Assembly (NCBI GenBank): GCA_964016885.1
Contig: OZ024743.1
Location: 183,644,001-183,708,000, forward strand
DNA from: Eledone cirrhosa
Taxonomy: Eukaryota
Reading direction: 5' to 3'
Length of the DNA stretch: 64,000 nucleotides
Under the pieces are notes generated by a model, which was given only the letters and a program-made list of their open reading frames with translations, did not search any database and was not told the origin of the DNA. The position numbers and the translations under genes were made by a program. Below, piece after piece: positions 33,956 through 63,229 of the stretch (its first letter is position 1; each line of letters begins with the position of its first letter).

Positions 33956-34010
<55 letters not shown>

Positions 34011-34189
34011 AGTTTAATAAAGAAATGACTTCTACAGGACTAGAACTGTTTATAGTCCTGTAGAAGCCATTTCTATATTATATTTGATGTTTACACTCTA
34101 CTAATGTATTGAGTACCTTACTAACTGTGGTTACCCTCAATTGAACCTAGGACTCTGTCTCTCACACACATACTGAAGTACATATATAC

Positions 34190-34228
<39 letters not shown>

Positions 34229-35739
34229 TATAAACTGTTGAATCACCATTGTGTATAGAGGGCCATATAACCCAGTCAAATAAATATTTGGGAAAATGGC
34301 ACAAAGACAATAAAACAAAAACAAGATGAACACAAACAAGGAACATCCCTTCATCATCTGTCTATAAAACGTACCATAGATTCATGATGGAATCTTCCAT
34401 GCTTGCTCTGTTTTTATATCCTTGTGGGATTTCTCTTAATATCTACATATGTGTGTTTATGCATGCATGTGCAGGGACATGGAAATACTCCATTTGGTGG
34501 TGCCTGAGCATGCATTTATCCCACTGGAATTGAGTGATTCTTGTTCTTTGTTAGGACTTCATTCTAGAAGTAAAAATCTGATGTAAAACCTGCAACTCAA
34601 TGACAGCCAATAATATTAACCTGTTCTTTTTGGATGTCATCATTGTTCAGAGAGTTGGATTGGTCCAGTGCAGGACCTTTCTTCAAGCACAGGCATCACT
34701 TGATCTAAACATCTTACATATGTGTTGCATAAGTATGGATGGCCGTAGCCAAAACAGATTTTTTTTCTCTTTCACTGCAACATATGCAGAAAAGAATGTA
34801 AATCCTTGGCAGGGTTAAAACGTTACATCTGCGCCACCCATGTTTGAGAAAAGGATCAAATGATGGCAATTCTCGAAATCGAGTTGCAGCCATCATTCAT
34901 GTGTGTGTATGTATGTCTAGCATAACTCCTTTAATTTGTTTTAATCAACTAAGCAAAATTTGCACTGTCTAATTTCTTGTAGATGTCAGCCAGCATGTGT
35001 TAGTTTACTCATACTTTTCATGTCTAATACTGTAACTGCAAGCTTTCTGAATTATTTCCACCTTCATTCAATCTGATGACGAGTCATTTTCAGTTAGTGA
35101 ATATTCAACAAAATTCCAGTTTTTAATCATTGTCTTTGTCTTTTGCTTGTTCATTTATTTTGAAACCTCAAATGTTGTAGTTCATTGTTTCTTAATTTTC
35201 TTTTTTCTATTTTGTTCCTCAATTTATCTTTATTATCTTTGGTTTAGTATGTTTTCCACATACATTAACCCTTTTGATTTCTATCTGCCTGAAACCACCT
35301 CTACTTCTATGATAGAAGGCTGTTTGTGAAGAGTTTATATTTATCTAGAAAAACCTTCTCTCATAATTTTATGTAAGAACCTTTTTTAAGTTATGTTCCT
35401 AACACTATCTTAATGAGTAAGTTATATAACTAACCCCTTCCAAATTCTTGATTACTTTCAAAATTATTCAAAAATCGTTGTCCGTGTTTTTCATAAAAAA
35501 TAAATTGAGGAAGGGTTAGACATGTATACCCATTTCAGTATCAGGGCAGCCCTGATCAAAGGCATTCCAGATAAGACCTCTTCCCTCTATATAGTGTATC
35601 AAAGACTACATTATTCAATATGCCTTTTTTTTGTGAAATGTAATCTAGAATGAAATTAAGCTGCTATTTCTAGCAGGACAAATGATCACGTTGAGGCTCC
35701 TTTGTTGGCTGGTTTAAGTAGGTTTTAAACATTTCACAA

Positions 35740-35925
35740 ATATATTCCGTTGTTTGTAAAGGATCCTTGATATATCCTAAAGAGTGTGTGAAGATATCTT
35801 CCCAAATATATTTGGTTGGTTGTAAGAGATCACTGATGTACCCTAAAGAGTGTGTGTAGATGTGTTCCCAAATATATTTGGTTGTTTGTAAGGGTCCCTG
35901 ATGTACCCTAATAGGCGTGTGTCTT
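35740..35925. repeat. about 65-bp diverged tandem repeat x3
   Basis: caaatatatt.ggtt..ttgtaa....tc.ctgatgtaccctaa repeated. Confidence 0.8.
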
Positions 35926-36048
35926 ATATGTTTTCAGAAATTGTCAGGATAATGTTGGCAATAGGGTTGTTTATAAAATATGTTTCGTAATATATTGCTT
36001 TCATAGAACTTATTATAGATCTAGACGTTAAATGAATCAACTTGCAGC

Positions 36049-36084
<36 letters not shown>

Positions 36085-36100
36085 TGTGTGTGTGTGTGTG

Positions 36101-36134
<34 letters not shown>

Positions 36135-36504
36135 ATTGACTTTATTTTTCTAGGCCTTCGGATTCACACCTAACGTGCCCCATTGCACTAGTTAAACCTG
36201 TGTGTGGTCTTTAACAACTTTACTAATTATTCATACTCACACCTTAACACAGCCTCATTTACACTGAGTTAACCAACCCTACTTATGTTAATTCCTTTTA
36301 AATAATAAAATAAAACATTTTACATAGCTGGCAATGATCATTAGTTAGAGAAGAAACGTTTTACTAGCACCGGTAATTACCTCCCTTAGCATACTAATCT
36401 CTTCCCACTGTGTTTTATACTTAACCACGTATATTTAATATGCACTGTGATGTAAAGTTATTTTACCCAAATAGGGTATATAATTAAAACTTTGCCTTAA
36501 TATC

Positions 36505-36545
36505 TGCCTCAGACGAGCCCCATTAGGCGAAACATGTGTAAGAGC
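36505..36545 (+). ncRNA. degenerate minimal hammerhead-like motif at a probable Penelope-like 3' end
   Basis: CAGACGA-gcc(ccatta)ggc-GAAAC-atgt-GTA; one core deviation (U4A) and imperfect stem I. Confidence 0.45.
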
Positions 36546-36597
36546 TTTATAAAGATATGATTTAACGGCTTGTAACTCTTTCATTAATTATTTTGCC

Positions 36598-36654
<57 letters not shown>

Positions 36655-36925
36655 GTATACGTATGTATACGTACATACATATGTATACGTACATACATAT
36701 ATGTATACAGACGTACAATAGTATGTATATACATACATACATGCACACATATATATATGTACGTACGGGTTTACCGAACATTTATTATAATGCTTGGTGT
36801 GTTTGTAAACAAACAGCCCAAATTAAGCCGTACAGTGTTCCTTTGTCAGTGTTGAACAAAAGGGCAACAATGGTTGCCGAACACTGTACGGCTTAATTCG
36901 GGTTGTTCGGTAAACCCATACGTAC

Positions 36926-36961
<36 letters not shown>

Positions 36962-37091
36962 ATGTATATATATATATATATATACATACTACTGTACGTC
37001 TGTATACATATATGTATGTACGTATACATGCTTACATTTAAGTATCAGCCGTACTAAGAGTGAGAAATTTCATTTCATTTCATTCTTTTCC

Positions 37092-37162
<71 letters not shown>

Positions 37163-38199
37163 CATGCAATTGACTGTAAATCTACCATTCCCACCCATCT
37201 TCCCTGCTAGCAATGGTTGGATGGGTCTACTTAAGTGGAGCTACTGTCCTTTCAAATGGGAGCCTACATTTTACTTACATATGTTCCCATTGAACAATCA
37301 TGTCCATCCAATCCAGGGTCTTCTCACTCCTGTTGGAAGAACCCTTCCCTGGTTGACCTCCATTTTTGGTATTGTTTCTACTACTGGATGCTCTTCCTAA
37401 TGCTAACCACTTCAGAGTGTACGTGGTGCATTTATCATAGCAACAGCACTACCAATTACAGATTTTACTAGGTGCTGCACCAGCATTACCACTTTTTAGG
37501 GTGTACTGGGTGCATTTTATTGTGGCACCAGCACTACCAATTTACAGGGTTTATTGGGTGCATTCTATTGTTGGTAGGGTGTACATGGTAGAAGTAGATG
37601 TGATGTATCCCTCATGTGTAACCACTGTAATAGGAGAAAAGTGTGAACTGATAAGGTTAATGGCAGTTAATAGAAGCAGGATTAAAAATATCTTCCATTA
37701 TGATGTGACAGAGTTGAGTGATAGGTGGTGAATTGGCAGAGTTGTTAGAACACTGGATAGAATGCTTTCTGGTATTCGTTTCAACTCTCTGCTCTCTGAG
37801 TTCAAATCCTGTTGAGGTCAACTTTGTCTTTCATCCATTCAAGGTTGATAAAAAAATAAGTACCAGTCTAGTACTGGGGTCGATTCTTTTTCTATATCTC
37901 ATTCTCACTTCCTCTCTCTCACTCTCTATCCTTCTCTGGAAGAAATCTGCTGTATTCAGACATGGAGAGGAAATGGGCTCCTCCAGGTTTTAAAATGAAG
38001 CCCTAGAAATGCTGTATGTCAATATGGCAATATGGGTAAGTATGAGAATAGGTGGGTGGGTGTCAAGACACCCAGGTCCAATATCATCCCTTGTTACGTG
38101 GGCAGAATAGGACAGTGAGTATGGGGGATGGTGGGTGAGAGTGTAGGAAATGGGAAGTTAGTTAAAGGGACATATTGGTTGCTAGACCTAATACAGACA

Positions 38200-38760
38200 T
38201 ACCTCCAAGCCTGCAACATTTTCACTATTTGAATATTCCTTTTACCATGTTTGAATAAGTCTTCTTTAGCACCACATGTCATCATCATGGTCCTTTGTCA
38301 TCTCTGTTCTAACTTTTAACTTCATCAAGTTATTCTTCACCAGTTTTCCTAGGTCTTCCTTTCCTACAGGTTTCATCCACTCTGAATGTCCTACCCTTCT
38401 TTATGCAGCCTCCATCCTTCATACCAGCACAATCATCTCTCTTCCATACTATATTGATTGCTTTTATCTATAGTTTTCCCCTCAGCTTGTTTCTACTTTG
38501 TCATTCATGTATATTAACATTATATACCCACCAGAGTGTGTTCAATTTCTTTCTTTGTTGTCTTTGGAAGTCTTTGACTTTCCAGGCCTATCTTTCACTA
38601 TTGTGCAGTATTGCTCTTTCTATGCAAGCATCATACAATCTGCCCTTCATTCCATGAGAAAAAATCCTTTGTTACCCACAAAAGTAATAAATAGCTCTCT
38701 GAACTTTTTCCAATTGGTTCTTACTATAGTTACTATGCTGATACGAAGAATTGTATCAGC
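38200..38760 (-). mobile_element. old, decayed RTE LINE C-terminal fragment
   Basis: reverse strand resembles VRTNWKKFRELL...GRLYDACI...LH...W; homologous to 10099-10915. Confidence 0.65.
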
Positions 38761-39854
38761 TACATTGGGTCATTAATGTACAAGAGGGAGGAAGAGCGTG
38801 TGGGTCATATACACCATAGCGTGGGTCAGTGGGAGAGACAGCTATGCTAGTGCATAGTGTAGTAATGTGATCTGACAGGAAGCTTTCAATCCAAGCATAT
38901 TTAAAAGTAATGACATTGCTTTTACCAAAGTCCTGAAGAACTTCTGGTAAACAACATAGGAAAACATTTCCTCAGAAGACATATCTCTACAGAAGGTTAA
39001 TGAGGAGAGAAAGAGATTAGACCTGTCTTTACAGAATCCACACTGATTAATAATGAAGAGAGAGCAGACCTGTCTCAACAGAATCTGTACTGAAGGTTAC
39101 CAAGGAGAAAGAGACACACACCTTCAAAGTGTTGGAAATGGTGATTGTCCAAGATTTGTTACCGTCACATTTTCTGTGAGTTAAAAGAATAAACTACAGA
39201 GTTTGGTGATGAGAGATGGAGTTAGCTGTGGAGTGTTGTGTTTGAAGGTAATGGAAGAGATATTGACAGTATTTGTTTGAAATAATGGGAGAAGTTTCCA
39301 CATTTGGTTTTGTGTAGATGGTGGAGAATCTGGATCAGATAGGTTCATAGATAGTTTGAGAAGGTTCATAGATAATTTTGGAAATAAGAGATGAAAACTA
39401 TTCAGTGTGTCTTATCCTTTAATACAAGTTTACTTATCTGGTTAGGATTCTTCTTTTTGTTGTTATGCATGTATGGTCCTGTAACTCCTGAGAGAGTCGT
39501 AGTGGGATACAGCATTTCAAAGGCATTTTAAACCTTTCCAGGTTTGAGTACAGCAGATTTTTTCCAGGAAGGATAGAAAGTGAGAAAGAGAGAGATATAG
39601 AGGAAAAATTGATACCAGTATTCGACTGGTACTTTTTATAAACCTCGAATGGATGAAAAGCAAAGTTGACCTCAATAGGATTTGAACTCAGAGAACAGAG
39701 AGCTGGATCGAATACCGCAAAGTATTTTACCTGACCTTCTAACAACTCTGCAAATTCACTGCCTTTGTTCTATTATATAACAATTTACATCACTAGAATA
39801 ACAGTTGCATGGAGCTGACAAAATATACATATTTATTTTATTATTATTATTAAC

Positions 39855-40290
39855 TTTTTCAAGTTTCACTTGGAGAGGAAAGTGAGGGGGGAGAGAGAAG
39901 TGCTGCCCCCAGTACATTTACTGAAAGGGGGGGGGGGGGGGTGGTGAATGTTACAAGAATGGCTAATGGCAATGGGTCTTCTCTAAGCATGCGCTTGTCA
40001 ACTGGCTGATTTAGAGAGGAGAGGGGCGCCTTCCTATGGTGCTCTTCGAGTGTCAGGTGGTTTAGGATTTGTGGGGTTCCTAAGTCACCCCTGGTTTGTC
40101 TTCCTCCCTATTGGGAAATTTTCATTGTTGTAATTCTTTTGTTCATTGATATTTGTTTATTAATTTCTTTCTACTCGATTTCAGTGTAACTCCCCCTACA
40201 TACACTGACCCTGTCTATTGTATTGTCCCCCTTTTTGTTGGACCTTGTTGCAAATAAAAAGAAATAATAATAATAATAATAATAATAATT
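39855..40290 (+). mobile_element. Tx1/L1-like LINE 3' end (ORF2 C-terminus, 3' UTR, AATAAA, (AAT)n tail)
   Basis: FKFHLERKVRGERE.L....F.ER..W-like peptide, T-rich UTR, aataaa near 40253, (aat)n. Confidence 0.6.
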
Positions 40291-43200
40291 TGATCGGACG
40301 CCTTTTTGCTCGCTCTCGTAAGTCTCTATATTTACCTGTCATAAATTATTTATTGTTAAATTTTTGTTGTTGTGTAAGGGATTTAAGTCCTTGGACTTTG
40401 CCCTGTGAATGGGAAAGTATAATATTTGGGCCTTTTGGCCCAAATATTTGAACTTTTTACATTTAAAAATTATCGAAAAAAAAGAAACATGGCTGAGCCC
40501 AGCGATATGTCTGCTGTCGTGTGACAATGACGTAAAAGTTGAGAGGATAGTTACGGTACAGTGAACACAGAAATTGATACAACAAACACCACCACAAACA
40601 ACGTGAACAAAGATAGCAATGACAACAACACTGAGAACACTAATTTTGAAAAAAATTACCACACCAACCAAAATACAGACAACAGAAAAAATGACAGCAA
40701 ATGCAACAACAATATTAACACCACTAACATGAAAACAAATAGCAACAACAGCAACAACACCAACAGCAACAATACAAATTGCACAGAGAACAACAACAAC
40801 AACACTAAAGACACAACCAACTGCAACAGTGATAACAGCAACAACACTAACAACACCATTTGTAGCACCAACAACAAGACCAGTAGCGGCAGCAACAATG
40901 ATGCCACTGAAAAAAGGCCCATCTCTTTTGCAAAGGTGGCTCGCAGAGTAGAAACAGTCCTGGTCACAGAGGAGGAGATGGCGGTCACAAGATACATGGT
41001 AACCAGAATTGAATTTTCAGTGTCCTTGAAACCACCAACCGACTTCCTGGAGGAACAAGAGCGACGTACAGTGTCATATCGCATGATTGTCACAAAATTG
41101 CATCATGTGGAGAGAGCCTCGGAGGCCCAAATCCAGAAAGCCTTGGAAACTGTTGTGGACACGGAAAACCCACATCACCCGAGCCAAGAAATATGCTACC
41201 GTGGACGTCCTTTTTGCTACCACCCAAGAAGCAAAATCGCACTCAATGAGGACCCTACGAAGTGATGACATAACATTAGTCCCGTTTTACTGCAGGAAAA
41301 AAATTGCAAAGGTCAAGGTAACCCAGGTTCCGCCCTACATACCTGGGCTGGTCGTGTCTGTTCTTGCGAGCATCGAGGATAGAACAACCATTCTGCAGGT
41401 ACAGAAGTTGGGGAGAGAGGACTGGTCTGGTATTGGAATGGAGATGTTCATCCAAACCGACCAGGACTGCATTAGCGCTATTCCTGACATAATAAACCTT
41501 GGGAATGGCTCCCAATTTCCCATATCTGTGGAAGGAAGGTGCCCAAAGTGCTTCAACTGTGGATCGAAGTCTCACTCAGGGACTTCTGCCCACAGAAAAT
41601 AAAGGCGAAGGCCCCCCTCTTTCCAACGCCGGAACCGCTGCCATCAGAAACAGTCAGCGAAAAAGTCAGGAGCTTCTACTGAGAGTAGGAAGACAACGTC
41701 CGTGGCGCCCACACCAAAGCTATGGACAACAAAAACAGCAGCGGCAACTGCAGCAACAGAAACAGTTGCACTAGCTGCACCTGTACCAAGAACGGCAGAC
41801 CAGGCTCCACCACCGCCACCAACAACAACAAAGAAAAATGAGATGGTAGAAATCATACGCCTCCCTGACCTCTCACAGTAGGACATGGAGTATGAGGTGG
41901 CTGAGGAGTGGAAAACGATTGTCAACAAACAAAACAAATGCAAAAATACCACAGCTTCTCCCTCCAAAAGTGAAGGCAAAGAAAGAGGGGTAAAGGCTGC
42001 AAGGAGACTTGCAGCAACACCACCACCATCACCACAACAAGCATCACCACCAACAACAACCACACCACCACCAACATCACCAAAAACAGCAACATCGCAA
42101 ACACAACAAAGCACACACACCCAACAGCAACAACAAGAAAACAGCAATACAATCACCCCACCCCCCACCCCCACCAAGTACACAGCCATAAATATCACAC
42201 ACAAAGGATTAATGGAACATATAAAACAACACACAGACATTACGGACATAAATTATCACACCCCACCAACACCAAGAACATTACCAAAAAATATTAACAT
42301 TGTAGAAATTAAACTCGAAGATTGCAAACAATTAAAACAAAAATTCCCCAAGGCAGTTGGGGATTTCAGTGGGGTCACTCTCCAAAAGAATCTATACAGA
42401 TATCATCTTGGAGACACCCATGACCAGCCGAAGGGACGGTTCTACTGTCCCTTGCCCACATGATCAAGGTAAGTGATCCTTTCTCACTTACCCCGTTCCT
42501 CACCCAGCATGGCCGTACTCAGAATAGGCAGTGTAAATGTACGTGGCCTGGGATCATCTTGGAAGCAGGATCACCTGCTCAACGACCTCAGGTCACTAAA
42601 CATAGTTGTGGAGGCCATCAGTGAGACCAGAATCTCCGAAGCATGAGCCTTCGCACCGATCTTCAGCGGCTACTGATGTATATATGCATCTCCTAGCCGT
42701 CCAGGATCAAGGGGAGGAGTTGCTGTGCTGGACATGACCGGCAATGGCCCGGTTACTGGAAGCTGAACGTGTCTTTCTCGGCGCGCCAAACTTACAGAGA
42801 CCGGATTAGCGAATTAGTTAAGCGTGCGTTGATGGGTGCAATCGCCAACAACAGGTGGGGGTTTACTCTGAAAAGGGTTATTACAGTAGAATCGATAATG
42901 TTTAGCAAAGGAGGAGTGATAGAGGGAGAGCTAGTTAGAAAAGCTAGAAGAGGCATTTAGGACAGGCATCGCAACCGACGTGCTTGCGACGAGATTGGCA
43001 CTCAACCAGTTCTTCAACACAAAGCATGAAGGCTGCGTTGTCAGTGCTAGAGCGCGTGCTCTGAGACACGAGGGGACGAAAGCTGTTCAATGGGCCCGGG
43101 TGGTCGAGGCGCGATGTGGTAATACATCCACAATTCGGTCTTTGCCTGATCAAAATGGGTGCATGTTGCTCGAACCCGAGCAGATGTGTACGGCTTTTCA

Positions 43201-44530
43201 ACAGCACTTTGCTCAATTGATCGGGAGTGATGGCGGGCTGGATTGGAGTATGGACTTCAGTGCATACCTCGATGGACTGTCGCGGCTCTCGACGACCGCA
43301 GCGCAGTGCTGCGAAAAGTCAATAACAGCAGGTGAAATACGGGAAGCGATGTCTGACTCCATGAGTGGTAAATCACCAGGATTGGATGGTCTGCCCTACG
43401 AGCTATATGCGTACATGGCAGACTTATTCGGTGACCTCTTGGCAGATGTCTACTGCAACTGGCAGCAGAACAGGAGCATTCCCAGTTTTGTGAGCCAAGC
43501 AGCAGTGGCGCTGCTGAGAAAAGACCTGAATAAGGGGGACGTTATAGACAACTTCAGGCCCATAACTCTACTAAACGCAGAGTTCAAGTTTTTGGCCAAG
43601 ATGTTAGCAAAGAGATTGGCGCTTGTCGTCAGTGACCTGGTGGGAGAGGCTGAGGCATGCACCATTCCGGACAGACCCATCCACGACAACCTCCATCTCA
43701 TGCGATACATCATAGAGAGGGTGGCTAAGGAAACTAGCACGGGTGGGGCCCTGATCAACGTGGATCAATCTAAAGCATTTGATAGGGTCAACCATTGGTA
43801 CCTGGCTGCGGTCCTCGAGGCAGCCGGCTTCGGGCCCATTTTTAGGGCTGGATCGCTGCGATGCACAGGGACATCTGCTCGATTGTGAGGGTGAATGGTC
43901 ACCTGTCGCAGCCGTTTAGCATCATGTGCTCGGTCCGAAAGAGTTGTCCCCTCTTGTCCCTACTGGCCCTCGAGCCGTTACTGCACAAATTGGAGATGAA
44001 AAGGGGGTCCCACGCGAACTGGGATGCAGGAGTTCCATGTCAGCTTATGCCGAAGATGTCACCGTGGTGGTGTCGAGCACCAAACACGTCCAGATGCTTG
44101 GCACCGCTCTCAAGGAATACGAAGCGGTGACAGAAGCAAAGATAAACCAGGGAAAGTCGGTGGGTTTGCAACTCAGCACCTGGAGAGAGAAGTCCATGCC
44201 TTCCGACAGCATCATGGGGCACTGGACGGAAGGATCTGTTAAATTGCTCGGGGTCTGGTTTGGTCCGGACCGCCAGATGGAGAAAAACTGGAGCAAGGTG
44301 ACGAGCAGGGTGGCCTCTCACCCAGAAATGGGCCGAGAGGAGGCTATCTCTGAAAGATCGGGCGGAGGTGGTGAATGCATACATCACGTCCGTCATCTGC
44401 TACCGCCTGACCGTCGTACCTTGCCCCCCGCCCAACTCTGACCAAAATAGAGCGACTTCTCTTCTGCTTTTTGTGGAAGGGACGTGGTCCCATGGTCAGA
44501 CAATCCATCTGCTGTCAGCACCCGTTGCAT
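40290..44530 (+). mobile_element. Tx1/L1-clade LINE, decayed and 3'-truncated: ORF1 (Asn/Thr-rich, zinc knuckle), ORF2 (APE start, RT)
   Basis: ORF1 CFNCGSKSH; ORF2 IGSVNVRGL..ISETR (near 42510), KSPGLDGLPYELY, NFRPITLLNAEFK.LAK.LA.RL, DQSKAFDRVNH, AYAEDV, KLLGVWFG; several frameshifts and stops; APE largely deleted. Confidence 0.92.
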
Positions 44531-46034
44531 TCGTATTCCCTGATTTTCCATGCTAGTCTAATAAGCATGGGTTGGGGAAGACTTTTTTTGTTTTTATTGA
44601 AACACTATTCTACAACTGGTCATTTGTATGTCAAACTGCTGAGCTGCAGGACATTGTTTATGCAGGTCATAAACAAATGTCACTGCCAGTGTGAGTGGTG
44701 ACAAATGTAAAGTAAAGACTGACCCACATAAACACACTCTCACCCCCCACACATTATGAGGTTCTCTATAGTTTCTGTCTACCAAATTTAGCCACATGCC
44801 ATTGATCATCCTTAGGTAAAAGTAGAAGACACGTGTCTAAGGTGTTATACACTGAGATAGAACTTAAAATCAAGTGGTTTCATTCCAATTGTATTTCTCT
44901 TTAAACATTGTTAATGCTAATGGGAAAACATGTCTTACAACATCTCATTTCCCCTTAATATGAAATCGTACCTCTCTGCTTAAGTAAAAAAAAAGAAGTG
45001 CTAATAATGTTGAAAATATGTTTAGAAAATGGTAAGCAAGACTTGAAAATTGAATGAGATTTCACTGTACCTTTGACTATATAAAACACTGATAATATCG
45101 AGGTGTATAAAGCTACTAATAATATTGGGGTCTGTAAGCCTATTGATAATACTGGGGTCTATAAACCTACCGAAAAGGGAAAGATGGATCAGCTCATATG
45201 GAAGTCATCCAGTAAACAAGAGGTGTGGGATCAACTCCCATGTGTGCTGTTGTCCATCTTTTTCTGTTCAGTGGGTTTATATGCCCCATTATTATTAGCT
45301 TTGCCTTTCATCGTTACGTAATTGATAAAATAAAGCACTAATAATGCACTGGGAGTCAATATAATTGACTTTCCTCATCCCCTTCAAATTGCTGGCCTTG
45401 TGCCTAAAGTAGAAACAATTATTAGATCATTTTATTTAGTCAAAGTTACAGAAAAATCTTCTTATTCAATTTTCAATAATAAAATAATTTGAAACGTAGT
45501 CATGCCAACACCAAAGACTTTAATAATAGTTGATGGCCACAAATTTCTTAAGTCAGCCTGTTGTTTACAATAATAGTAATTTGTAATTTGTTTGTATGAG
45601 ACACAAAGCCAATATTGTAGAGGTGGAAGTATAATCTATGGTAAACATGGACTGAATATTAATTTCTGACATGAATATTGTGGTATATACTGTTTAAATG
45701 ACTATATGTGTGTGTGTGGGTGGGGGGGAGGGGGGATCTGCCAGGAGTTGGCTGGTAGATAGTATCACCAATGGAAACATTTTTTCCTTGGTCCAATTTG
45801 AAATGTTCCACTTCACTCGGTAAAAGAGTGAGGTCTGGGATGTTGTCAATTGGTTTGATCAGTATATAAAGTAGAAAAGAGGAAATATATAATATTAAAA
45901 AAAAATTGTATTGAAAGAATATTCTGACTATATATACCCGTGACGAATTCCTTTGACCCACATATATTACTGGTATTTGTTATCTTCTATAAATGAAAAG
46001 CAAAAATTAACCGTGGCGGAATTTGAACTAAAAA

Positions 46035-46697
46035 GTAGATATTGGTTCTAGCTCTATATCATCTGTTAGTAGATACTATACTATCAGTTCCAGCTCTATA
46101 TCTGTTAGTAGATACTATACTATTAGTTCCAGCTCTGTATCAGTTAGTAGATACTAAACTATTAGCTCCAGCTCTATATCTGTTAGAAGATACTATACTA
46201 TTAGCTCCAGCTCTGTATCATGTTAATAGACACTATACTATTGGTTCCAGCTCTGTATCATCTGTTAGTAGATACTATACTATTAGTTCCAGCTCTATAT
46301 CATATTAGTAGATACTAAACTATTAGTTCCACTGCTATATCAGTTAGTAGATACTATACTATGAGTTCCAGCTCTATATTTGTTAGTAGATACAATACTA
46401 TTGGTTCCAGCTCTGTATCATCTGTTAGTAGATACTATACTATTAGTTCCAGCTCTATATCTGTTAGTAGATACTAAACTATTGGTTCCAGCTCTATATC
46501 TGTTAGTAGATACTATACTATTGGTTCCACCTCTATATCTGTTAGTAGATACTATACTATTGGTTCCAGCCCTATATCATTTGTTAGTAGATATTAAATT
46601 ATTAGTTCCAGCTCTATATCTGTTAGTAGATACTATACTATTAGTTCCAGCTCTATATTATCTGTTAGTACATACTATACTATTAGTTCCAGCTATA
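46035..46697. repeat. 39/42-bp minisatellite, about 16 copies
   Basis: unit tctgttagtagatactatactattagttccagctctata. Confidence 0.95.
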
Positions 46698-46909
46698 TTG
46701 AACTAAAAACCTTACAATATTTACATTTCTACATCAAATTTGCCTTTCATCACTCCAGATTAAAAATAATGAAATTATTTGTAATTAGCAATTTAATGTA
46801 ATAAATCAGTTTAGTGTAGTCTTCTCTCATCTACCTCCTTTGTTTTTAATCAATGATGATAATAATAATTGCTGTTATTTTCTCTAACTTAAATGTTTTT
46901 ATTCTCTAG

Positions 46910-47046
46910 GTCTCCCAACCTTTCTCGGCCATTATCAATGGACATTTCTGATTGGAATCCATTTGGAGAAGACCATTTTAGTTCCTATACTGAAGATATT
47001 ATTTTTGGAAAAGAATTTGATAAAATTCGGCGAGGTTCAAATAGTA
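46910..47046 (+). CDS. AAK1: AAK1/BMP2K-like exon: SPNLSRPLSMDISDWNPFGEDHFSSYTEDIIFGKEFDKIRRGSNS
   Basis: ctctag acceptor, A|gtaag donor; WNPF..D.F...TE.....EF.K motif conserved in AAK1/BMP2K. Confidence 0.93.
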
Positions 47047-47789
47047 GTAAGTTTCCAGCACATATTTCCCTTTGTGAAAGTTAGCTTTTATTTTGAAAAC
47101 AGAAGTGTGAATTATTCGTGATTTTATTTTTCTCATTGGGATGATACATAACTACTTGATAACTACTTGCCCGCTTAAAAACATACTATAACACTTCCTA
47201 ATATAAATATATTAAATGACAGAATCATCTTGCTTCTCTTTGCTTAGTAAAATGAGCTTTATTATCTATTACTCTTACCAGGGGTTTCAATGTCCAGGTA
47301 TTTACCCATTTTTCCAGTGACAAAATGGTTGCAAGAAACTTCTCTTTGATCAGTCATGGGCAAACTGTGACCTGCCAAGCTGCATGTAGCCCTTTTGACT
47401 TTCTGAATGGCATGCTTAATGCGGTGCATTGCTTGGAAAAGGTTATCCATGCCTGCTTTAGATAGATGCTAGATGTCACAAGTTCTAGTTATGCAAGGAC
47501 ATGAACCTAGAAAGTTATGATTTGGAATCATACAGACATCAAACTTATTGGTTACATTAGGAAAATCAATCATGAAAGAAATAATAATTCCTCTCAGATA
47601 ATTGATCCATTTGATTAGGTTAACTATAAATTATCAGCTGATACTTTGTGTTGCTATGGAGAGTGTTAATAAGAATATACCTTGAGTAAATAGATTATTG
47701 CATGTATGTTTACATTACTAGAAACATTACATACACACACACATATATAAACTGTGTTTTATAAATTATTAAATCATTTCATTGTGTAG

Positions 47790-47879
47790 GTATATCAAAT
47801 GTGAAAAGTAGAGAAGATTTGGTTATGTCTGGGTCTGACTCATCGGATCCTTTTTCAAATGCTCCATTCAAAAAACCAG
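47790..47879 (+). CDS. AAK1: AAK1/BMP2K-like exon: SISNVKSREDLVMSGSDSSDPFSNAPFKKP
   Basis: gtgtag acceptor, G|gtaag donor; phase 1 to 1; DPF..APF motif. Confidence 0.88.
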
Positions 47880-48243
47880 GTAAGATATTTTTAATAATAA
47901 TAATAATATACTCTTTAAAGTATTCATTGTAGATATTTTGACTTTAACAAATGAATTGCTTTATGTAGAGATTAATAGTGTTTTCTGTTTATTAATTTAT
48001 TACATTGTATTAGAATCTTTTTGGTTAATTTAATGTATTCATGGCAGCATATATATATATATATATATGTATACATACACACACATATATATATATATAC
48101 ACACTTATATGTATATATGTATGTATAATGTGTGTGTGTTGCCAACATCTTTGGTCATATATGCATGTACAACTTGTTTTCTAATAATCTCAAATAGATA
48201 TATTAGAGTATCTGTGAGCCTATGTACAACAGAATGCACACAC

Positions 48244-48275
<32 letters not shown>

Positions 48276-52311: not shown

Positions 52312-52334
52312 CTGTCTTACATTTGCCATTATAA
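52312..52334 (+). CDS. possible short terminal coding exon (AVLHLPL*) of the AAK1-like gene
   Basis: long pyrimidine/T tract + ttatag at 52306-52311; phase 1 gives 7 codons then TAA; no homology support. Confidence 0.25.
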
Positions 52335-54999: not shown

Positions 55000-55400
55000 T
55001 CATCATCATCATTTTACATCCGCTTTTCCCTGCTTGCAAGGGTTGGACGGGTCCTATTCAGCATCTCTCCACTTGTCACGGTTCTTCGTCATCTCCTCGG
55101 TGAGTTTCAGTGTTCTGAGGTCTGCTCTCACCACCTCCGCCCATGTTTTTCGTGGTCTACTGCGTCTTCCCTCCACTGGGACTTCCTGGCACTTCTTCAC
55201 CCATCGGTCATCCTCCATGCGCATCACATGTATGTATATATATGTATATATATAGCTATACATATATGTATATGTATGAATATATATGTATGTATATATA
55301 TATATATAGCTATACTTATATGGAGAGATGCTGTGCTGAATAGGACCCATCCAACCCTTGCAAGCCGGGAAAAGCAGACGTAAAATGATGATGATGATGA
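55000..55400. mobile_element. two RTE subfamily A 3' fragments in inverted orientation around a TA-rich spacer
   Basis: 55000-55230 (-) and 55321-55400 (+) both match 10670-10915. Confidence 0.88.
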
Positions 55401-55472
55401 TAGCTATACTTATATGTATATGTATGAATATATATATGTATGTATGAATATATATATGTATGTATGAATATA

Positions 55473-55520
<48 letters not shown>

Positions 55521-55880
55521 TGTGTGTGTATGAATATATGTGTGTGTGTATGAATATATATATGTGTGTATGAATATATATATGTGTGTACATGAATATA
55601 TATATGTATGTCTGTATGAATATATATATATAAACCCATGCTAGCATGGAAGATAGATGTTAAATGATGATGATGTTTGTATGAATACATATATGTATGT
55701 ATGTATGAATATATATATATGTGTTTATGAATATATATATATGTGTTTATGAATATATATATGTATGTATGAATATATATATGTATGTGTTTATGAATAT
55801 ATATATGTATATATGTATGAATATATATATGTATGTGTGTGTATGAATATATATATATATGTATGTATGAATATATATAT

Positions 55881-56536
55881 GTATCCCAGTACAACCTGTC
55901 CCATGGTCGGGTCGTTGGCGACTAAACTGGCAACCCCACCAAGGTTTCTTGGTGAGGAGGGTGACTTTGGACATCCTGCAGGACTAAACACAAAACCTGT
56001 CAAAGGGCAAAGGAGCTCTTAAGAGTCAATGGCCATCCAAAATCACCGGGAGAGATGACCCCTTAGCCTTTGTCAAGGCAGAATTCTAGGAGAAGGAAAA
56101 CTCTGATATAACACCTGCAACCCTGATGGTTTCCAATGATGTTGACTTGTTCTTCTTTTTGGTAAATATCATCTTGGTTAAGAGAGTGGGACTGGCTTTG
56201 TGCAGTGCCTTTGCTCACTATAAAAGCTTCACAGCACAGGCATTGCTTTATATCTGGAGATCTCTCTGCACTTGTCGTCACATGGTACCATGGGCCCAGC
56301 ACTATGTGTCAATAATTGTCACAAGTGTAGTGTTTGTACCAGAGTTTTCAAGTTGCTGGCTGGACTAAAAAGTCACACTCGTTCAGCGCATCGGTAGGGG
56401 TTCTCCTACATGGATATAAAGTAGTGGCCGTACTCGAAAACGAGTTGGCAGCCACCATGTATGTATGAATATATATGTATGTATGTACGTATGAATATAT
56501 GAATATATATGTATGTATGTATGAATATATATATTC

Positions 56537-56615
<79 letters not shown>

Positions 56616-56630
56616 TACATACACACATAC

Positions 56631-56705
<75 letters not shown>

Positions 56706-57608
56706 CATACACACATATATATATATATATATACATACATATATGGTGGCTGCCAACTCGTTTTCGAGTACGGCCACTACTTTATATCCATGTAGGAAAA
56801 CTCCTACCGATGCGCTGAACGAGTGTGACATTTTAGTCCAGCCAGCGACGTGAAAACTCTGGCACAAACACTACATTTGTGACAATTATTGACACATAGT
56901 GCTGGGCCCATGGTACCATGTGACAAGTGCAGAGAGATCTCCAGATATAAAGCAATGCCTGTGCCGTGAAGCTTTTATAGTGAGCAAAGGCACTGCACAA
57001 AGCCAATCCCACTCTCTTAACCAAGATGATATTTACCAAAATCACCTGGAGAGATGACCCCTTAGCCTTTGTCAAGGCAGAATTCTAGGAGAAGGAAAAC
57101 TCTGATATAACACCTGCAACTCTGATGGTATCCAATGATGTTGACATACATATATATGGTGGCTGCCAACTCGTTTTCGAGTACGGCCACTACTTTATAT
57201 CCATGTAGGAGAACCCCTACTGATGCGCTGAACGAGTGTGACTTTTTAGTCCAGCCAGCGACTTGAAAGCTCTGGTACAAACACTACACTTGTGACAATT
57301 ATTGACACATAGTGCTGGGCCCATGGTACCATGTGACGACAAATGCAGAGAGATCTCCAGATACAAAGCAATGCCTGTGCCGTGAAGCTTTTATAGTGAG
57401 CAAAGGCACTGCACAAAGCCAGTCCCACTCTCTTAACCAAGATGATATTTACCAAAAAGAAGAACAAGTCAACATCATTGGATACCATCAGGGTTGCAGG
57501 TGTTATATCAGAGTTTTCCTTCTCCTAGAATTCTGCCTTGACAAAGGCTAAGGGGTCATCTCTCCCGGTGATTTTGGATGGCCATTGACTCTTAAGAGCT
57601 CCTTTGCC
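55881..57608. mobile_element. four alternating-orientation fragments of one element, probably an RTE 5' region
   Basis: 55881-56458(+), 56743-57040(-), 57037-57145(+), 57156-57608(-) nearly identical; ctaggagaaggaaaactctgat motif; diverged relative at about 34500-34897. Confidence 0.75.
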
Positions 57609-57643
57609 TTTTTTTTATATATATATACATACATATATATATA

Positions 57644-57722
<79 letters not shown>

Positions 57723-57783
57723 ATATATATATATATGTGTGTGTGTGTATATATATATATATGTGTGTATATATATATATATA

Positions 57784-57826
<43 letters not shown>

Positions 57827-57839
57827 ATATATATATATA

Positions 57840-57884
<45 letters not shown>

Positions 57885-58016
57885 CTGTATATATATATAT
57901 GTGTATGTATATATATATGTATATATATATATATATATATATGTAAAAACAAATAACGAAACAAAATTAAATTTCGTTTCGCTTCCAACTCACTTTTGTA
58001 TGACTGACGCTTAAAC

Positions 58017-58574
58017 AATTAAGTTAAAAGTGTACATCTACATATGTATACTGAAATACTAGTATGCATATAAATACACACATGTATACATATGTACATG
58101 TACTGAGTTTTTCACTGGACACTTTACTGTGAGTGTCCAGCTAGTCTGTATGTAACCAAACAGACAAACCGGGTTTTAGAGTCATACGGGTTTTCAAGGA
58201 AACACATTTCCTCTATTCTCCAGAGAGCCAGACAGGAATATTGGACTAGTTTCGATGTTATTATATCTCATCAGCAATATATACCCATCTTCCGGCTTCT
58301 CTAGAGAATCGTAAAAGCACATATCGTTATATGCTTTTTCTATGAAAATTAGTAGTGGGCAGACTAATTTGCATAGAACGCGAGTCATTGTACGCACCGG
58401 TTCAGCGGAAACGATAACCCGGTTTTTCTGTTTGGTTACATACAGACTAGCTGGACACTCACAGTAAAGTGTCCAGTGAAAAACTCAGTACATGTACATA
58501 TGTATACATGTGTGTATTTATATGCATACTAGTATTTCAGTATACATATGTAGATGTACACTTTTAACTTAATT
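58017..58574. mobile_element. 558-bp fold-back element with 159-bp inverted arms and a hammerhead in the spacer
   Basis: 58017-58175 is the reverse complement of 58416-58574 with one mismatch seen; lies within (TA)n fields. Confidence 0.9.
58238..58280 (-). ncRNA. minimal type-I hammerhead ribozyme with intact core
   Basis: - strand reads auauug-CUGAUGA-gau(auaauaac)auc-GAAAC-ua-GUC/caauau: 6-bp stem I, 3-bp stem II, palindromic ACUAGU stem III, GUC triplet. Confidence 0.85.
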
Positions 58575-58691
58575 ATATATATGTATATATATATATATGT
58601 GTGTATATATATGTATATATATATATATGTGTGTATATATATGTATATATATATATGTATATATATGTATATATATGTATATATATATATA

Positions 58692-58736
<45 letters not shown>

Positions 58737-58851
58737 GTATATATATATGTATATATATATATATATATATATAAATGTATATATATATATATATGTATAT
58801 ATATATAAATGTATATATATATATGTATGTATATATATGTATATATATATG

Positions 58852-58882
<31 letters not shown>

Positions 58883-58967
58883 GTATATATATATATGTAT
58901 ATATATATATGTATATATATATATATGTATATATATATATGTATATATATATATGTATATATATATA

Positions 58968-59265
58968 GAAGCATATAAACAATATGCCCCCCCCCCCCAC
59001 CGCAAGGTGGTCGTGGAGGTGCCACGGCAAAAAAGCACCCAGCCCACACTGTAAAGTGGACGTGTAGGCGCCACGAAAAAGCACCCAGCACTCACTGTAA
59101 ATGAGGTTGGTGTTAGGAAGGGCATCCAGCTGTAGAAATCAAGCCAGATCAGTTCCTGTATGAGCAAGGCATGGTCAGCCGACCAGACACTGCCCACAAC
59201 AGGACAACCCGTCTAACCCATGCTAGCGTGGAAGAACGGACGTAAAACGGTGATGATGATGATGA
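58968..59265 (+). mobile_element. RTE subfamily B 3' UTR fragment in (TA)n
   Basis: near-identical to the reverse complement of 9074-9380. Confidence 0.88.
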
Positions 59266-59299
59266 TATATGTATATATATATATGTATATATATATATG

Positions 59300-59348
<49 letters not shown>

Positions 59349-59419
59349 GTATATATATATGTATATATATGTATATCTATATATATGTATATGTGTATAT
59401 ATATATATATGTATATATG

Positions 59420-59466
<47 letters not shown>

Positions 59467-59509
59467 GTGTATATATATATATATGTATATATATATGTAT
59501 ATATATATG

Positions 59510-59542
<33 letters not shown>

Positions 59543-59554
59543 GTATATATATAT

Positions 59555-59592
<38 letters not shown>

Positions 59593-59629
59593 GTATATAT
59601 ATATGTATATATATATGTATATATATATG

Positions 59630-59660
<31 letters not shown>

Positions 59661-59725
59661 GTATATATGTATATATGTATATATGTATATATGTATATAT
59701 GTATATATATATATATGTATATATG

Positions 59726-59774
<49 letters not shown>

Positions 59775-59789
59775 GTATATATATATATG

Positions 59790-59870
<81 letters not shown>

Positions 59871-60019
59871 GTATATATATATAAATGTATATATATAAAT
59901 GTATATATATATAAATGTATATATATATAAATGTATATATATATAAATGTATATATATATGTATATATATATAAATGTATATATATATAAATGTATATAT
60001 ATATGTATATATATATATA

Positions 60020-61671
60020 ATAATGAAATGACAGGAGGCTGGATTTGTGTAAATCCTTGTAAGGTTTATTATACTATGATCATTTCAATGACCGGGTTCC
60101 GTATGATATCATCAGGTATTCGGTGATATCATCAGGTATTCAAAATATAATACGTGAATGTAATAGATAAAATCCATGGGGCTGAAAATCGAGGACCCGA
60201 GGGCGACCGCTATCTTGCACCCTCTATCTTAGCCGGTCGCCCTCGAGTGACGTGGCTAAGGCTCACAGTGTGCTACTACCAGTCAGATAAAGGAAAACAG
60301 AAATGGATGGGAACATAAGTTACAAGACAAAAGAAAGAAAGAAAGGAAGGAGAGTGAGGAAGGGGGAAGGAAGAAGAGGAGAAGCCAGGGTCAATGTCAG
60401 TTATAAGAAGAAAGACAGAAAGAAAGAGGAGGAAAGGTCGGTATTACAGTCAGGCCAGGATTGTCGCGAAGAAATTTTTTTATTCTACGGGACCCGTATC
60501 TAAACAACTACTACCGGTCAGATATAGGCGAACAAAAAGGGGGAAGGAAGATAAGTCTGCGGGAGGAAGACAGAAAGAGGGGAGAAAAGAAGGAAGAAAA
60601 GGAAGAAGTAGAAGAGTAAGGGTTGATGGCTACAAGAAGGAAGATAGAAAGAAAGAGGGGAGAAAGGTTGATATTAATGTCAGACTACAGTCAGGCCAGG
60701 AGTGGCACGAGAAAATTTTCACAGGGACCCGTATCTTAGCAGAGGTGAATATAGTGGGGGTCAGTGTGTTATAATGTGTGAGCAGAAGATTGGAACATTA
60801 CGTTTTTGTTTAGACTTAGAGGATGAAGTTAAAAATTAATAATCAATAATTAATATCAAAGAAATTAGAAAATTTAAAGTTAAACAGTTTAACATTTTAA
60901 GGTTGATATATCTAATAGTTCTGATTTGGTCTGTAATTTAAAGGTACTATGTGACGGTTAAAAACCGGCCGCGCTCCGGGACGAATTAAGCCACTCCGAG
61001 TATTTTCATTTACCGAAAGAAGGGGAAATTTATTTTTCCAAGCACTCAAGGTAGGCCCTTGCCTCAGGGTGCGCCGCCATTAAAACCCACCCAACAGTCC
61101 GACAGAAAGTTGGAACTTTAAAATATTGTTTAAATTTATAGGATGAAGTTGAAGGAATTCAGAATAACATTATAAAATTAAAGAGTAGAGGATTGAGAAT
61201 TGAACGAACAGAAAATTGAAAATCAAACATTTAAAAAAAACTTCTATAAGGTTTTGGGTTGCGGGGTTTAATTAAAGAGAGTCTTTTATGAAGAGACGTT
61301 AATTGTATTATGTAGATCTATAATTTATCCTAGTGGGATGTAGAGTACGGGATATAGTCGGGTAATATTTATGGATTTTATCTATTACATTCACGTATTA
61401 TATTTCGAATACCTGATGATATCACCGAATACCTGATGATATCTTACGGAACCCGGTCATTGAAATGATCATAGTATAATAAACCTTACAAGGATTTACA
61501 CAAATCCAGCCTCCTGTCATTTCATTATAATATTTAACTCCGTAATAGCACCACCAACTACAAAAACAAAGACGGTTGAACTGCTTTACGTTGAGTACTC
61601 TCTATATTATTACATTACGATTGACCATACGGAATAGACCAGCTCTATACAGTGGTGAACCTCAAACCTGA
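60020..61671 (+). mobile_element. Penelope-like element relic with inverted pseudo-LTR
   Basis: 60020-60177 inverted vs 61371-61528; hammerhead-like motif in the repeat; decayed GIY-YIG-like peptides on + strand (SDLV.N.K, KTGR...RI..H, LIKESLL*RD); flanked by (TA)n. Confidence 0.7.
61409..61477 (+). ncRNA. hammerhead-like motif with duplicated CUGAUGA box; mirror copy at about 60071-60139 (-)
   Basis: auac-CUGAUGA...GAAA-UGAUCA-UA/guau; palindromic AUGAUCAU stem III; imperfect stem II. Confidence 0.6.
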
Positions 61672-61688
61672 ATATATATATATATGTG

Positions 61689-61724
<36 letters not shown>

Positions 61725-61944
61725 TATGTATATATTTATATATATATATGTATATATATATATGTATATCATCATCATCATCAACGTTTAACGTCCGTGT
61801 TCCACGCTTGCCTGGGTTTGGACGGGGTTATTCCCACTTGAGGCAAGAGTGATTGTCTTGCTCGCATAGGACTGTATATATGTATATATATATGTATATA
61901 TATATGTATATGTATATATATGTATATATATATGTATATATATG

Positions 61945-61975
<31 letters not shown>

Positions 61976-62085
61976 GTATATATATATGTATATATTTGTA
62001 TATATGTATATATATATATATGTATATATTTGTATATATGTATATGTATATATTTGTATATATGTATATATTTGTATATATGTAT

Positions 62086-62153
<68 letters not shown>

Positions 62154-62209
62154 GTATATATGTATATATATATATATATGTATATATATATGTATATATA
62201 TGTATATAT

Positions 62210-62332
62210 ACGTGGGAAAGTAAAAAATCGGAGAATAGACCGTTAAAACATGTTTATTTAAAACGGCACCTACGTACGTTTTAAATAAACATGTTTTAAC
62301 GGTCTATTCTCCGATTTTTTACTTTCCCACGT
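62210..62332. repeat. perfect hairpin, about 55-bp arms with a ~10-nt loop, beside (TA)n
   Basis: acgtgggaaagtaaaaaatcggagaatagaccgttaaaacatgtttatttaaaacg followed by its exact reverse complement. Confidence 0.92.
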
Positions 62333-62518
62333 GCTTACGCTCTGCTAACTCTCTAGCCCACTAAATATTAACACTTCGAATATTTAATACTGCCGGCACT
62401 AGTATCGAGCACCTTTGGCATACGCTACTTGGTAAATAACTATATGTATCACCTATCCTCCCTTTTTTTCTCTTTCTCGATACGTAAATACTATATGTAT
62501 ATATGTATATGTATATAT

Positions 62519-62853
62519 CATCATCATCATCATTTCATTTTACGTCCGCTTTTCCCTGCTTGCAAGGGTGGGACGGGAACTGATTCTGGCTTGATTTCTA
62601 CAGCTGGATGCCCTTCCTAACACCAACCTCATTTACAGCGAGTGCTGGGTGCTTTTTTGCCATGGCACCTCCACGACCACTTTGCAGTGGAATGATAGGG
62701 ACCCCAGTCCCTATCATCTCATTTCTACAGCTGAGTAAACTGGAGCAATGTGAAATAAAGTCTCTTGCTCAAGTAAACAACACATCACCCGGCCTGAGAA
62801 TTGAACTCACAACCTTTCGATTGCAAGGCCAATGCTCTAACCACTAAGCCATA
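62519..62853 (-). mobile_element. tRNA/CORE-type SINE with RTE tail
   Basis: near-identical reverse complement of 14178-14516. Confidence 0.88.
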
Positions 62854-62956
62854 TATATATGTGTGTGTGTGTGTGCGTGTGTATATATGTGTGTGTAATG
62901 TATATATATATATATATACATACACACACATATATATATGTATATATGTATATGTA

Positions 62957-63007
<51 letters not shown>

Positions 63008-63058
63008 ATATATATATGTATGTATATATATATATGTATGTATATATATATATATATG

Positions 63059-63119
<61 letters not shown>

Positions 63120-63229
63120 GTATATATATCGGTACTCAGTAATAGAGAAAACCCGCCTTACCTAAATACAAAGTAAAACCTACTACAGTCAGTAGGCATC
63201 TCTAACAAAATACACCCCCGTCCCACCAC

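Follow-up and report, generated by a model that had tools for sequence, protein, structure and literature searches.

Insertions of Penelope-like elements (PLEs) have been described with an inverted, 5′-truncated copy next to the 5′ end, a tail at one end only and (TA)n targets, as set out in PMC8557442. In the same paper, hammerhead ribozymes are assigned to all Hydra families, whereas the Naiads lack canonical ones, and the four Octopus families (Naiad_Obim, Naiad_Ovul, Naiad_Omin and Hydra-1_Obim) are all listed with (TA)n. Here we describe five hairpins in contig OZ024743.1 of the octopod Eledone cirrhosa, numbered H1 to H5 from left to right; they are the five fold-backs singled out in a first-pass annotation of the 64-kb window, that is, of the whole stretch of DNA that was analysed. 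With a probability of roughly 0.75, as judged from sequence comparison, the hairpins are 5′-truncated insertions of endonuclease-bearing PLE families that integrate into (TA)n. A guild of such TA-targeting elements is already known in kind, and on this reading the stubs are new octopod examples of it.

Several other described features bear on the comparison. In O. vulgaris, 31 recently active PLE families have been counted (PMC13282606). Palindromes occur at inverted PLE junctions (PMC3846280), and pairs of minimal hammerheads are found on opposite strands (PMC4209133), the hammerheads of metazoan PLEs being marked by a G-C closing pair, a palindromic stem III and an extra unpaired base (PMC4209133). 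The protein of the Anolis element Poseidon cuts AT-rich DNA on both strands and extends each of them, and two start sites of reverse transcription define the tail (PMC11167929).

Anatomy of the five hairpins

Mapping of the arms confirmed the presence and location of all five fold-backs, as well as the near-equal arm lengths of 158–159 nt that had been claimed for two of them (159 nt in H3 and 158 nt in H4); the left arm of H2 measures 160 nt. The spacers of H1 to H5 are 4, 38, 240, 1193 and 11 nt long. An inverted duplication is present in 5/5 hairpins and, in agreement with the claim that each lies beside (TA)n, one arm end is found 0 nt from a TA-type tract in all five. A feature not remarked on earlier is an asymmetry of the same sense in every hairpin: a tail of unique sequence, on one side only, separates the second arm from the next TA tract. 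This tail measures 89 nt in H1, 61 nt in H2, 71 nt in H3 and 143 nt in H4; in H5 it was judged by eye to run for ~157 nt to a short degenerate TA run that is below the threshold of the TA-distance script. As background, 0.7% of the non-TA positions of the window lie within 5 nt of a TA-type tract, rising to 3.6% in the TA-rich region of 54.9–64 kb, although the five hairpins had been selected for TA contact. When single-locus fold-backs were picked by eye, with pairs of dispersed repeats excluded, six of the eight adjoined TA. The two that do not adjoin TA (33697–33922 and 45146–45295, with arms 75% and 71% identical, respectively) are older, symmetric fold-backs resembling miniature inverted-repeat transposable elements (MITEs). 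The head-to-head orientation of the two copies is fixed by the hammerhead strand or by homology for H2, H3 and H4 and is assumed for H1 and H5.

The two smallest hairpins have short loops. H1 (34007–34177) is composed of arms 34007–34045 and 34050–34088, identical at 34 of 39 positions, around a 4-nt loop, followed by the 89-nt tail to the next TA-type tract; its tail-less arm adjoins the (TA)n tract at 33958–34008. H5 (62210–62490) has perfect arms (56/56; 62210–62265 and 62277–62332) around an 11-nt loop, with the left arm at a TA-type tract. Both fold far better than shuffled sequences (z −9.7 for H1 and −21.8 for H5; 0/200 each).

The H2/H3 lineage

H2 and H3, which lie ~21 kb apart and are roughly one third diverged, are on alignment homologous and colinear in arm and tail. 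The left arm of H2 aligns to H3 with a score of 106 (0/300 shuffles; nhmmer E 3e-8; composition bias, 12.5 bits), and the two tails align with a score of 39 against a shuffle maximum of 30 (0/500 shuffles); the arm match is partly TA-rich, whereas the tail match is not. The first-pass annotation had found no mutual similarity among the hairpins, which does not hold for this pair but does for the other 14 of 15 tail pairs, all at shuffle level (the 15 pairs include one neighbouring element besides H1–H5). In the alignment, the ends of the tail-less arms of H2 and H3 are ~7 nt apart on the outer side and 11–20 nt apart on the inner side, and the arms stop 61 and 71 nt, plus the ~7-nt offset, before the same terminus. 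Both arms are ~160 nt long because their ends fall at nearly the same element positions. With homologous tails and near-coincident arm ends, the H2/H3 lineage shows that the tail belongs to the element.

H2 is composed of an inverted arm of 160 nt on the minus strand (36681–36840; arm mapping, alignment and nhmmer), whose outer end adjoins a TA-type tract and which is homologous to the H3 arm, and of a direct copy on the plus strand (36841–37090) comprising the 38-nt spacer, arm 36879–37029 with an internal microsatellite and the 61-nt tail, after which (TA)n follows. Its arms are composite. The outer block is identical at 44 of 45 positions, the internal TA tract differs in length between the arms, and a 35-nt segment retained by the left arm has been deleted from the right one, with a 4-nt repeat bounding the deletion. 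In H3, the direct copy lies on the minus strand (57946–58415) and contains the 240-nt spacer with a hammerhead, arm 58175–58017 and the 71-nt tail to (TA)n, while arm mapping placed the inverted arm on the plus strand (58416–58574) with its outer end at (TA)n. The two arms (58017–58175 and 58416–58574) are 158/159 identical, and their sole mismatch sits 11 nt from the inner end, a position with a 7% chance if randomly placed.

Hammerhead motifs

The 64 kb were scanned with a descriptor requiring an exact hammerhead core, a stem I of at least four Watson-Crick pairs and a short stem III, and 200 block shuffles were scanned in parallel. Four motifs were obtained, three of them independent, whereas the shuffles averaged 0.015 and never gave more than 1. 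All are located between 58.2 and 63.8 kb: in H3 (58274, minus), in H4 (61433, plus, and 60115, minus) and, outside the five hairpins, at 63771 (minus). A relaxed descriptor was unspecific, with 14 matches against a shuffle mean of 10.9.

The minimal type I hammerhead of H3 (58238–58280, minus strand), found by the descriptor, has a stem I of 6 bp, an exact core, a 3-bp stem II closed by a G-C pair and a palindromic stem III, with the cut predicted after 58244. It is the one hammerhead among the Rfam matches listed (HH9, 28.9 bits, E 0.004, below the gathering score of 52). The 150 matches listed, out of 197 (E ≤5), were nearly all to microRNA models at TA/CA microsatellites with scores under the gathering level, and these were rejected. 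The exact pattern of the H3 hammerhead was absent from the viral and metagenome contigs scanned.

H4 carries a Hydra-style hammerhead on the plus strand (61429–61477), recognized by the descriptor, its layout being compared by eye with File S2 of PMC8557442. It has a stem I of 4 bp, an exact core, an additional T flanking stem II on both sides and a palindromic stem III, with the cut predicted after 61473. Since its stem II is weak and lies beside a 20-nt tandem duplication of the 5′ core, this putative ribozyme may be dead. The exact pattern of an H4 arm motif was absent from the metagenome contigs scanned. Of the 12 sequencing runs listed for H4, nine, from six studies, contain part of its sequence (shares of 0.06–0.42), and no RNA run is among those listed; the runs do not enter into the evidence. 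The arms of H4 (60020–60177 and 61371–61528) are identical at 156 of 158 positions. The tail-less one (60020–60177, minus), defined by arm mapping and descriptor, adjoins (TA)n and contains a copy of the hammerhead with its core from 60115; the other, together with the 143-nt tail to (TA)n, spans 61371–61671 (plus). Between them lies a purine-rich spacer of 1193 nt (60178–61370) with decayed internal direct repeats, in which none of the six frames of at least 55 aa scanned gave a Pfam match. H4 has no similarity to H2 or H3, and its 158-nt arm may therefore resemble theirs in length by coincidence. A second occurrence of the end of the H4 tail, near 14085–14153, scores 62 (0/300 shuffles), although it is weak by nhmmer (E 0.037). 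The corresponding locus, 14085–14157, is an older tail-end fragment of ~75 nt with a short TA-rich run before it and a tRNA-like repeat after it, at 14185.

Four of the fold-backs had been credited with hammerhead or half-hammerhead motifs at or near the inversion. This could not be upheld, as complete hammerheads occur only in the spacer of H3 and in the middle of the H4 arms, ~70–100 nt from the nearest arm end. The cut site of H3 lies ~69 nt away from the direct arm's inner end and ~172 nt away from the junction; in H4, the cut site and the inner arm end are separated by 102 nt. Neither an exact 5′ core nor a GAAAC 3′ half was found within 15 nt of any of the five pivots (the points of inversion). 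A relaxed 3′-half string is present at three of five pivots with a background of 12% per point, or at two of five with a background of 14%, neither being above chance. The half-hammerhead strings at the pivots of H1, where a TAGTC string adjoins, and of H5 are at this background level (12–14%) and were not accepted as evidence, the junctions of hairpins being palindromic by construction. The proposal that the hairpins pivot at hammerhead remnants thus lacks motifs at the pivots themselves and survives in indirect form for H2 alone, through its homology to the cut site of H3.

That homology concerns the junction of H2. Anchored at the homologous arm, H2 36833–36904 can be aligned to H3 starting at 58243, the base directly past the predicted cut, with a score of 45 (0/2000 shuffles with fixed ends and 0/300 with a free start). 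Six of the first eight bases and seven of the first nine match the post-cut bases of H3, both differences being transitions, and 11 of the 30 bases upstream of this alignment match. The same eight bases (36833–36840, plus, placed by alignment to H3) also close the inverted arm on its inner side and are complementary to 36879–36886, with which they pair. This single case hints that the direct copy of H2 starts at the hammerhead cut position or no more than ~8 nt from it, without the core. The hint is tempered by several observations: the junction boundaries were picked after the sequences had been seen; the landing point is partly determined by length, with 75/300 shuffles landing no more than 3 nt away; the junction segment has no significant local score when unanchored (166/300 shuffles); an alignment begun 8 nt earlier scores slightly more (49); and H3 extends 172 nt upstream of its own cut site and is without the 8-bp complement. 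In the literature searched, largely without subscription papers, no statement was found that places the inversion junctions of PLEs at the cut site of the hammerhead.

Two neighbouring elements also carry hammerheads. At 63560–63800 (minus), a clean Hydra-style motif with its core at 63771 has a stem I of 5 bp, a 3-bp stem II with a tetraloop and a palindromic stem III. Its cut is predicted after 63743. The motif lies ~170 nt from a short TA run at 63557, and no inverted arm was seen; it is probably another PLE 3′ end. Directly left of H2, a TA-flanked element (36137–36600, plus) contains a decayed hammerhead (core 36510) ~60 nt from its end, with one core change, a 3-bp stem II and a stem I that is mostly lost. 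It is probably one of the motifs counted in the first-pass annotation.

Comparison with described elements

With the Hydra clade (PMC8557442), the hairpins share the (TA)n target, the canonical 3′ hammerhead of H3 and H4, a short palindromic stem III and, in H4 and at 63771, the extra T that flanks stem II on both sides in many Hydra families. In Penelope-13_HM, a 5′-truncated inverted copy places a hammerhead on both strands, as in H4 (PMC8557442). No sequence match to the Hydra clade was obtained (0/12 motifs, and 3′ ends compared by eye), and no open reading frame (ORF) is found here. Moreover, the distance from the cut to the 3′ end is ~30 nt in Hydra-1_Obim (PMC8557442), compared with ~200 nt in H4 and ~300 nt in H3. 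An 11-nt match of the H3 spacer to Hydra-1_Obim, noticed by eye together with a loose peptide likeness, was attributed to chance, as the spacing does not fit. Compared with the metazoan PLE hammerheads of PMC4209133, that of H3 has the G-C closing pair and the palindromic stem III but not the extra unpaired base.

The Octopus Naiads (PMC8557442) resemble the hairpins in their (TA)n target, inverted 5′-truncated copy and one-sided tail, and the long non-coding 3′ region of Naiads, with its internal duplications, recalls the H4 spacer (PMC8557442). Unlike the Naiads as described there, H3 and H4 have complete hammerhead cores with stems I and III, and by eye the 3′ ends of Naiad_Ovul and Naiad_Obim resemble none of the five hairpins.

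In the Penelope elements of Adineta vaga, the inverted pseudo-long terminal repeat (pLTR) is likewise somewhat shorter than its partner, junctions show palindromes or overlaps, and the tail is optional (PMC3846280). Captured spacers there measure 0.9–1.5 kb, and self-priming was proposed, on an antisense template (PMC3846280). Unlike the hairpins, those copies keep their ORFs and show target duplications of 8–10 bp and a 31-nt tail (PMC3846280), and the passages on head-to-head pLTRs do not place the hammerhead relative to the junction (PMC3846280). The two internal start sites of reverse transcription in Poseidon would explain arm ends with and without a tail (PMC11167929). Hammerhead cleavage was dispensable for insertion of Poseidon in vitro, and the cut site was neither the start nor the end of any RNA read (PMC11167929). 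The junction of H2 hints at the opposite in vivo, in another lineage.

Animal non-LTR retrozymes (LTR, long terminal repeat; bioRxiv 10.64898/2026.07.22.740005) are, like the hairpins, non-coding, with a type I hammerhead, and derive from the pLTR of PLEs. They form head-to-tail tandems and are reported to be excluded from introns (bioRxiv 10.64898/2026.07.22.740005), whereas the hairpins are head-to-head single units in introns. No tandem hammerhead units occur in the five hairpins, H4 having only the 20-nt duplication of its 5′ core.

Origin of the hairpins

The first-pass annotation had proposed a guild of TA-targeting Penelope-type families whose integration generates an inverted terminal copy. 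The core of this idea fits, because of the one-sided tails in 5/5 hairpins, the hammerheads of H3 and H4 and the common arm/tail boundary of H2 and H3, but the description of the elements as unrelated is wrong for H2 and H3. Judged on these features, H2, H3 and H4 are very likely of PLE origin, and for H1 and H5 such an origin is somewhat favoured. The families involved would number at least two and probably four, with H2 and H3 forming one lineage, H4 another, and H1 and H5 placed in neither.

In the proposed scheme, each insertion would consist of two copies of the 3′ part of the element, head to head, each with its 3′ end facing outward into the TA of the target. Of the two copies, one would reach the true terminus, while the other would stop 60–160 nt short, and the tail would be confined to one copy because only that copy ends at the terminus. 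The element protein would nick the TA target on both strands, reverse transcription would proceed from two sites near the RNA's 3′ end, and the two cDNA ends would be joined through a few complementary bases. Such two-site priming and joining is suggested tentatively, at somewhat less than even odds. It is possible, though doubtful, that a single cDNA folded back and was copied, a route that would require the second strand to be stopped or cut at the tail boundary. Either route is compatible with the finished structure, with the pairing over 8 bp in H2 and with the lone mismatch in H3. The hammerhead, as part of the 3′ repeat of the element, would be kept or lost according to where each copy stops: kept in the spacer of H3 and in both arms of H4, lost from H1, H2 and H5. 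A minimal type I hammerhead is present in two of the five hairpins, H3 and H4; it is implied for H2 by homology and absent in H1 and H5.

Several observations weigh against a PLE origin of the hairpins. Among 147 frames of at least 55 aa in the 31–64 kb region, Pfam gave no match to a PLE reverse transcriptase or GIY-YIG domain, an absence that is expected since the stubs are 5′-truncated; the only reverse transcriptase match (RVT_1, 42935–43885) lies outside all five hairpins. None of 12 short motifs from the window was present in the published consensus files of Naiad, Chlamys and Hydra, which were compared by short motif searches and by eye only. The tails, at 61–160 nt, exceed the 30–40 nt described, and a target-site duplication is unreadable inside TA. 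In H1 and H5, no complete hammerhead was found with the descriptor of exact core and stems I and III, and neither has a second copy within the window. The descriptor that found H4 had been loosened after a relaxed scan and the Hydra table of PMC8557442 had been seen, and a stricter one that required stem II found H3 only and missed H4. The hammerhead stretch of H3 folds no better than shuffles (z +0.7). Finally, the ends of other repeats, which we take to be RTE-type from their translated frames, also adjoin TA in 6 of 28 BLAST matches (≤20 nt, against a 2.2% background), although some of these six are microsatellite only. TA tracts in this region thus receive insertions in general, and since RTE-type 3′ ends adjoin TA too, TA contact alone is not diagnostic of PLEs.

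A stronger role for the ribozyme is conceivable but unlikely. In this octopod lineage, the hammerhead would cut the element RNA in vivo, the cut RNA would serve as template, and the pivots would be programmed by the ribozyme. Reverse transcription would run off at the 5′ end made by the ribozyme, and the cDNA end would pair with a complement of 8 bp built in 38 nt downstream, giving the inverted arm, as H2 suggests. Arm lengths would then be constrained, being ~160 nt in each of H2, H3 and H4. Near-perfect intronic double-stranded RNA (dsRNA) would be supplied steadily by the elements in an animal with extreme adenosine-to-inosine (A-to-I) editing.

Long TA runs extrude cruciforms and break. 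The inverted arms might have arisen after insertion, independently of the element enzyme, by repair at fragile (TA)n, in which a break invades nearby sequence in reverse, copies 40–160 nt and rejoins. All tail-less arms touch TA, and H1, H4 and H5 each show their arm end once only, as repair would allow. The arm ends of H2 and H3, at near-identical element positions despite the divergence of the two, are not what random repair would produce, and they make this origin improbable. The 461-nt, 98% inverted pair that an unrelated RTE-like repeat forms around TA at 55885–57612 could be cited in favour of repair, but the better reading is that of separate insertions, given that its three copies share one end base.

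Some hairpins might instead be non-autonomous DNA transposons, of MITE/fold-back type or Helitron-derived, that inserted at TA. Helitron-derived elements have sub-terminal inverted repeats, long terminal-looking inverted repeats flank non-coding spacers here, and H1 and H5 are without a ribozyme. Families with terminal inverted repeats, MITEs and Helitrons are active in Octopus vulgaris (PMC13282606). The symmetric MITE-like hairpin at 33697–33922 lies nearby, but it does not adjoin TA, and the asymmetry of 5/5 hairpins with one arm sub-terminal, the tail conserved between H2 and H3 and the hammerheads of H3 and H4 leave this explanation little probability. That the hairpins, or the perfect ones among them, are library or assembly chimeras beside TA tracts that are hard to assemble is very improbable, for although the arms are identical in H5 and >98% identical in H3 and H4, and tandem and inverted PLE structures trouble assemblies (PMC8557442), substitutions and a 35-nt deletion have separated the arms of H1 and H2, the arm/tail layout is repeated in the homologous H2 and H3, and the layout is one-sided in 5/5.

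If the hairpins are indeed PLE insertions, they provide octopod stubs without a match among the published consensus sequences searched, which is of use for repeat annotation. According to PMC8557442, it is unclear what PLE hammerheads do. If pivots were to cluster at the cut site, they would be a genomic footprint of cleaved templates and would make the question of hammerhead function testable, which would matter because this function is unclear and cleavage is dispensable in vitro. PMC5625713 reports unusually abundant near-perfect dsRNA and hyper-editing in Octopus, and self-contained PLE hairpins could contribute to this pool. The stubs are non-coding and, if transcribed and paired, would form RNA stems in the precursor mRNA of the host gene, AAK1/BMP2K.

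Host gene and genomic setting

The host gene was recognized from a polyglutamine frame at 21.4–22.3 kb, for which the four protein matches are AAK1/BMP2K of Octopus vulgaris, O. sinensis and Argonauta. Its exons, located by tblastn on the plus strand, are mostly 80–100% identical to these proteins. H1 and H2 share one intron, between the exons at 32840–32947 and 46905–47048, and the last exon found in the window is at 47792–47884. The ~600 remaining residues gave no match as far as 64000 (best E 2.9), and H3 to H5 therefore most likely lie in a later long intron of the gene. The earlier claim that the hairpins seed introns is thus established for the location of H1 and H2 and is indirect for the other three. 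The exon at 32840–32947, ~1 kb upstream of H1, matches two O. sinensis isoforms and may be alternatively spliced, because it is absent from the O. vulgaris and Argonauta proteins compared.

Other repeats in the window

At 55885–57612, three copies of a repeat, 96–98% identical, share a common end base next to TA, the outer pair forming the longest inverted repeat in the region. One copy carries a non-overlapping inverted 5′ piece (57036–57145), as in twin priming. A C2H2-like peptide, below the Pfam cut-off, is encoded by the repeat, which looks RTE-derived. Two copies of a (GAT)n-tailed repeat, a family with more than 15 copies in the window, lie 50 kb apart in inverted orientation (9078–9378 and 58968–59264) and are 99% identical over 299 nt. 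The intron that holds H1 and H2 also contains a decayed element resembling long interspersed nuclear elements (40543–44700), with an upstream frame and the reverse transcriptase frame at 42935–43885 (RVT_1, E 3e-8). Intronic minisatellite arrays are found at 412–993, 29101–30865, 32236–32632 and 46040–46698, with periods of ~59, 32, 98 and 80 nt, respectively.

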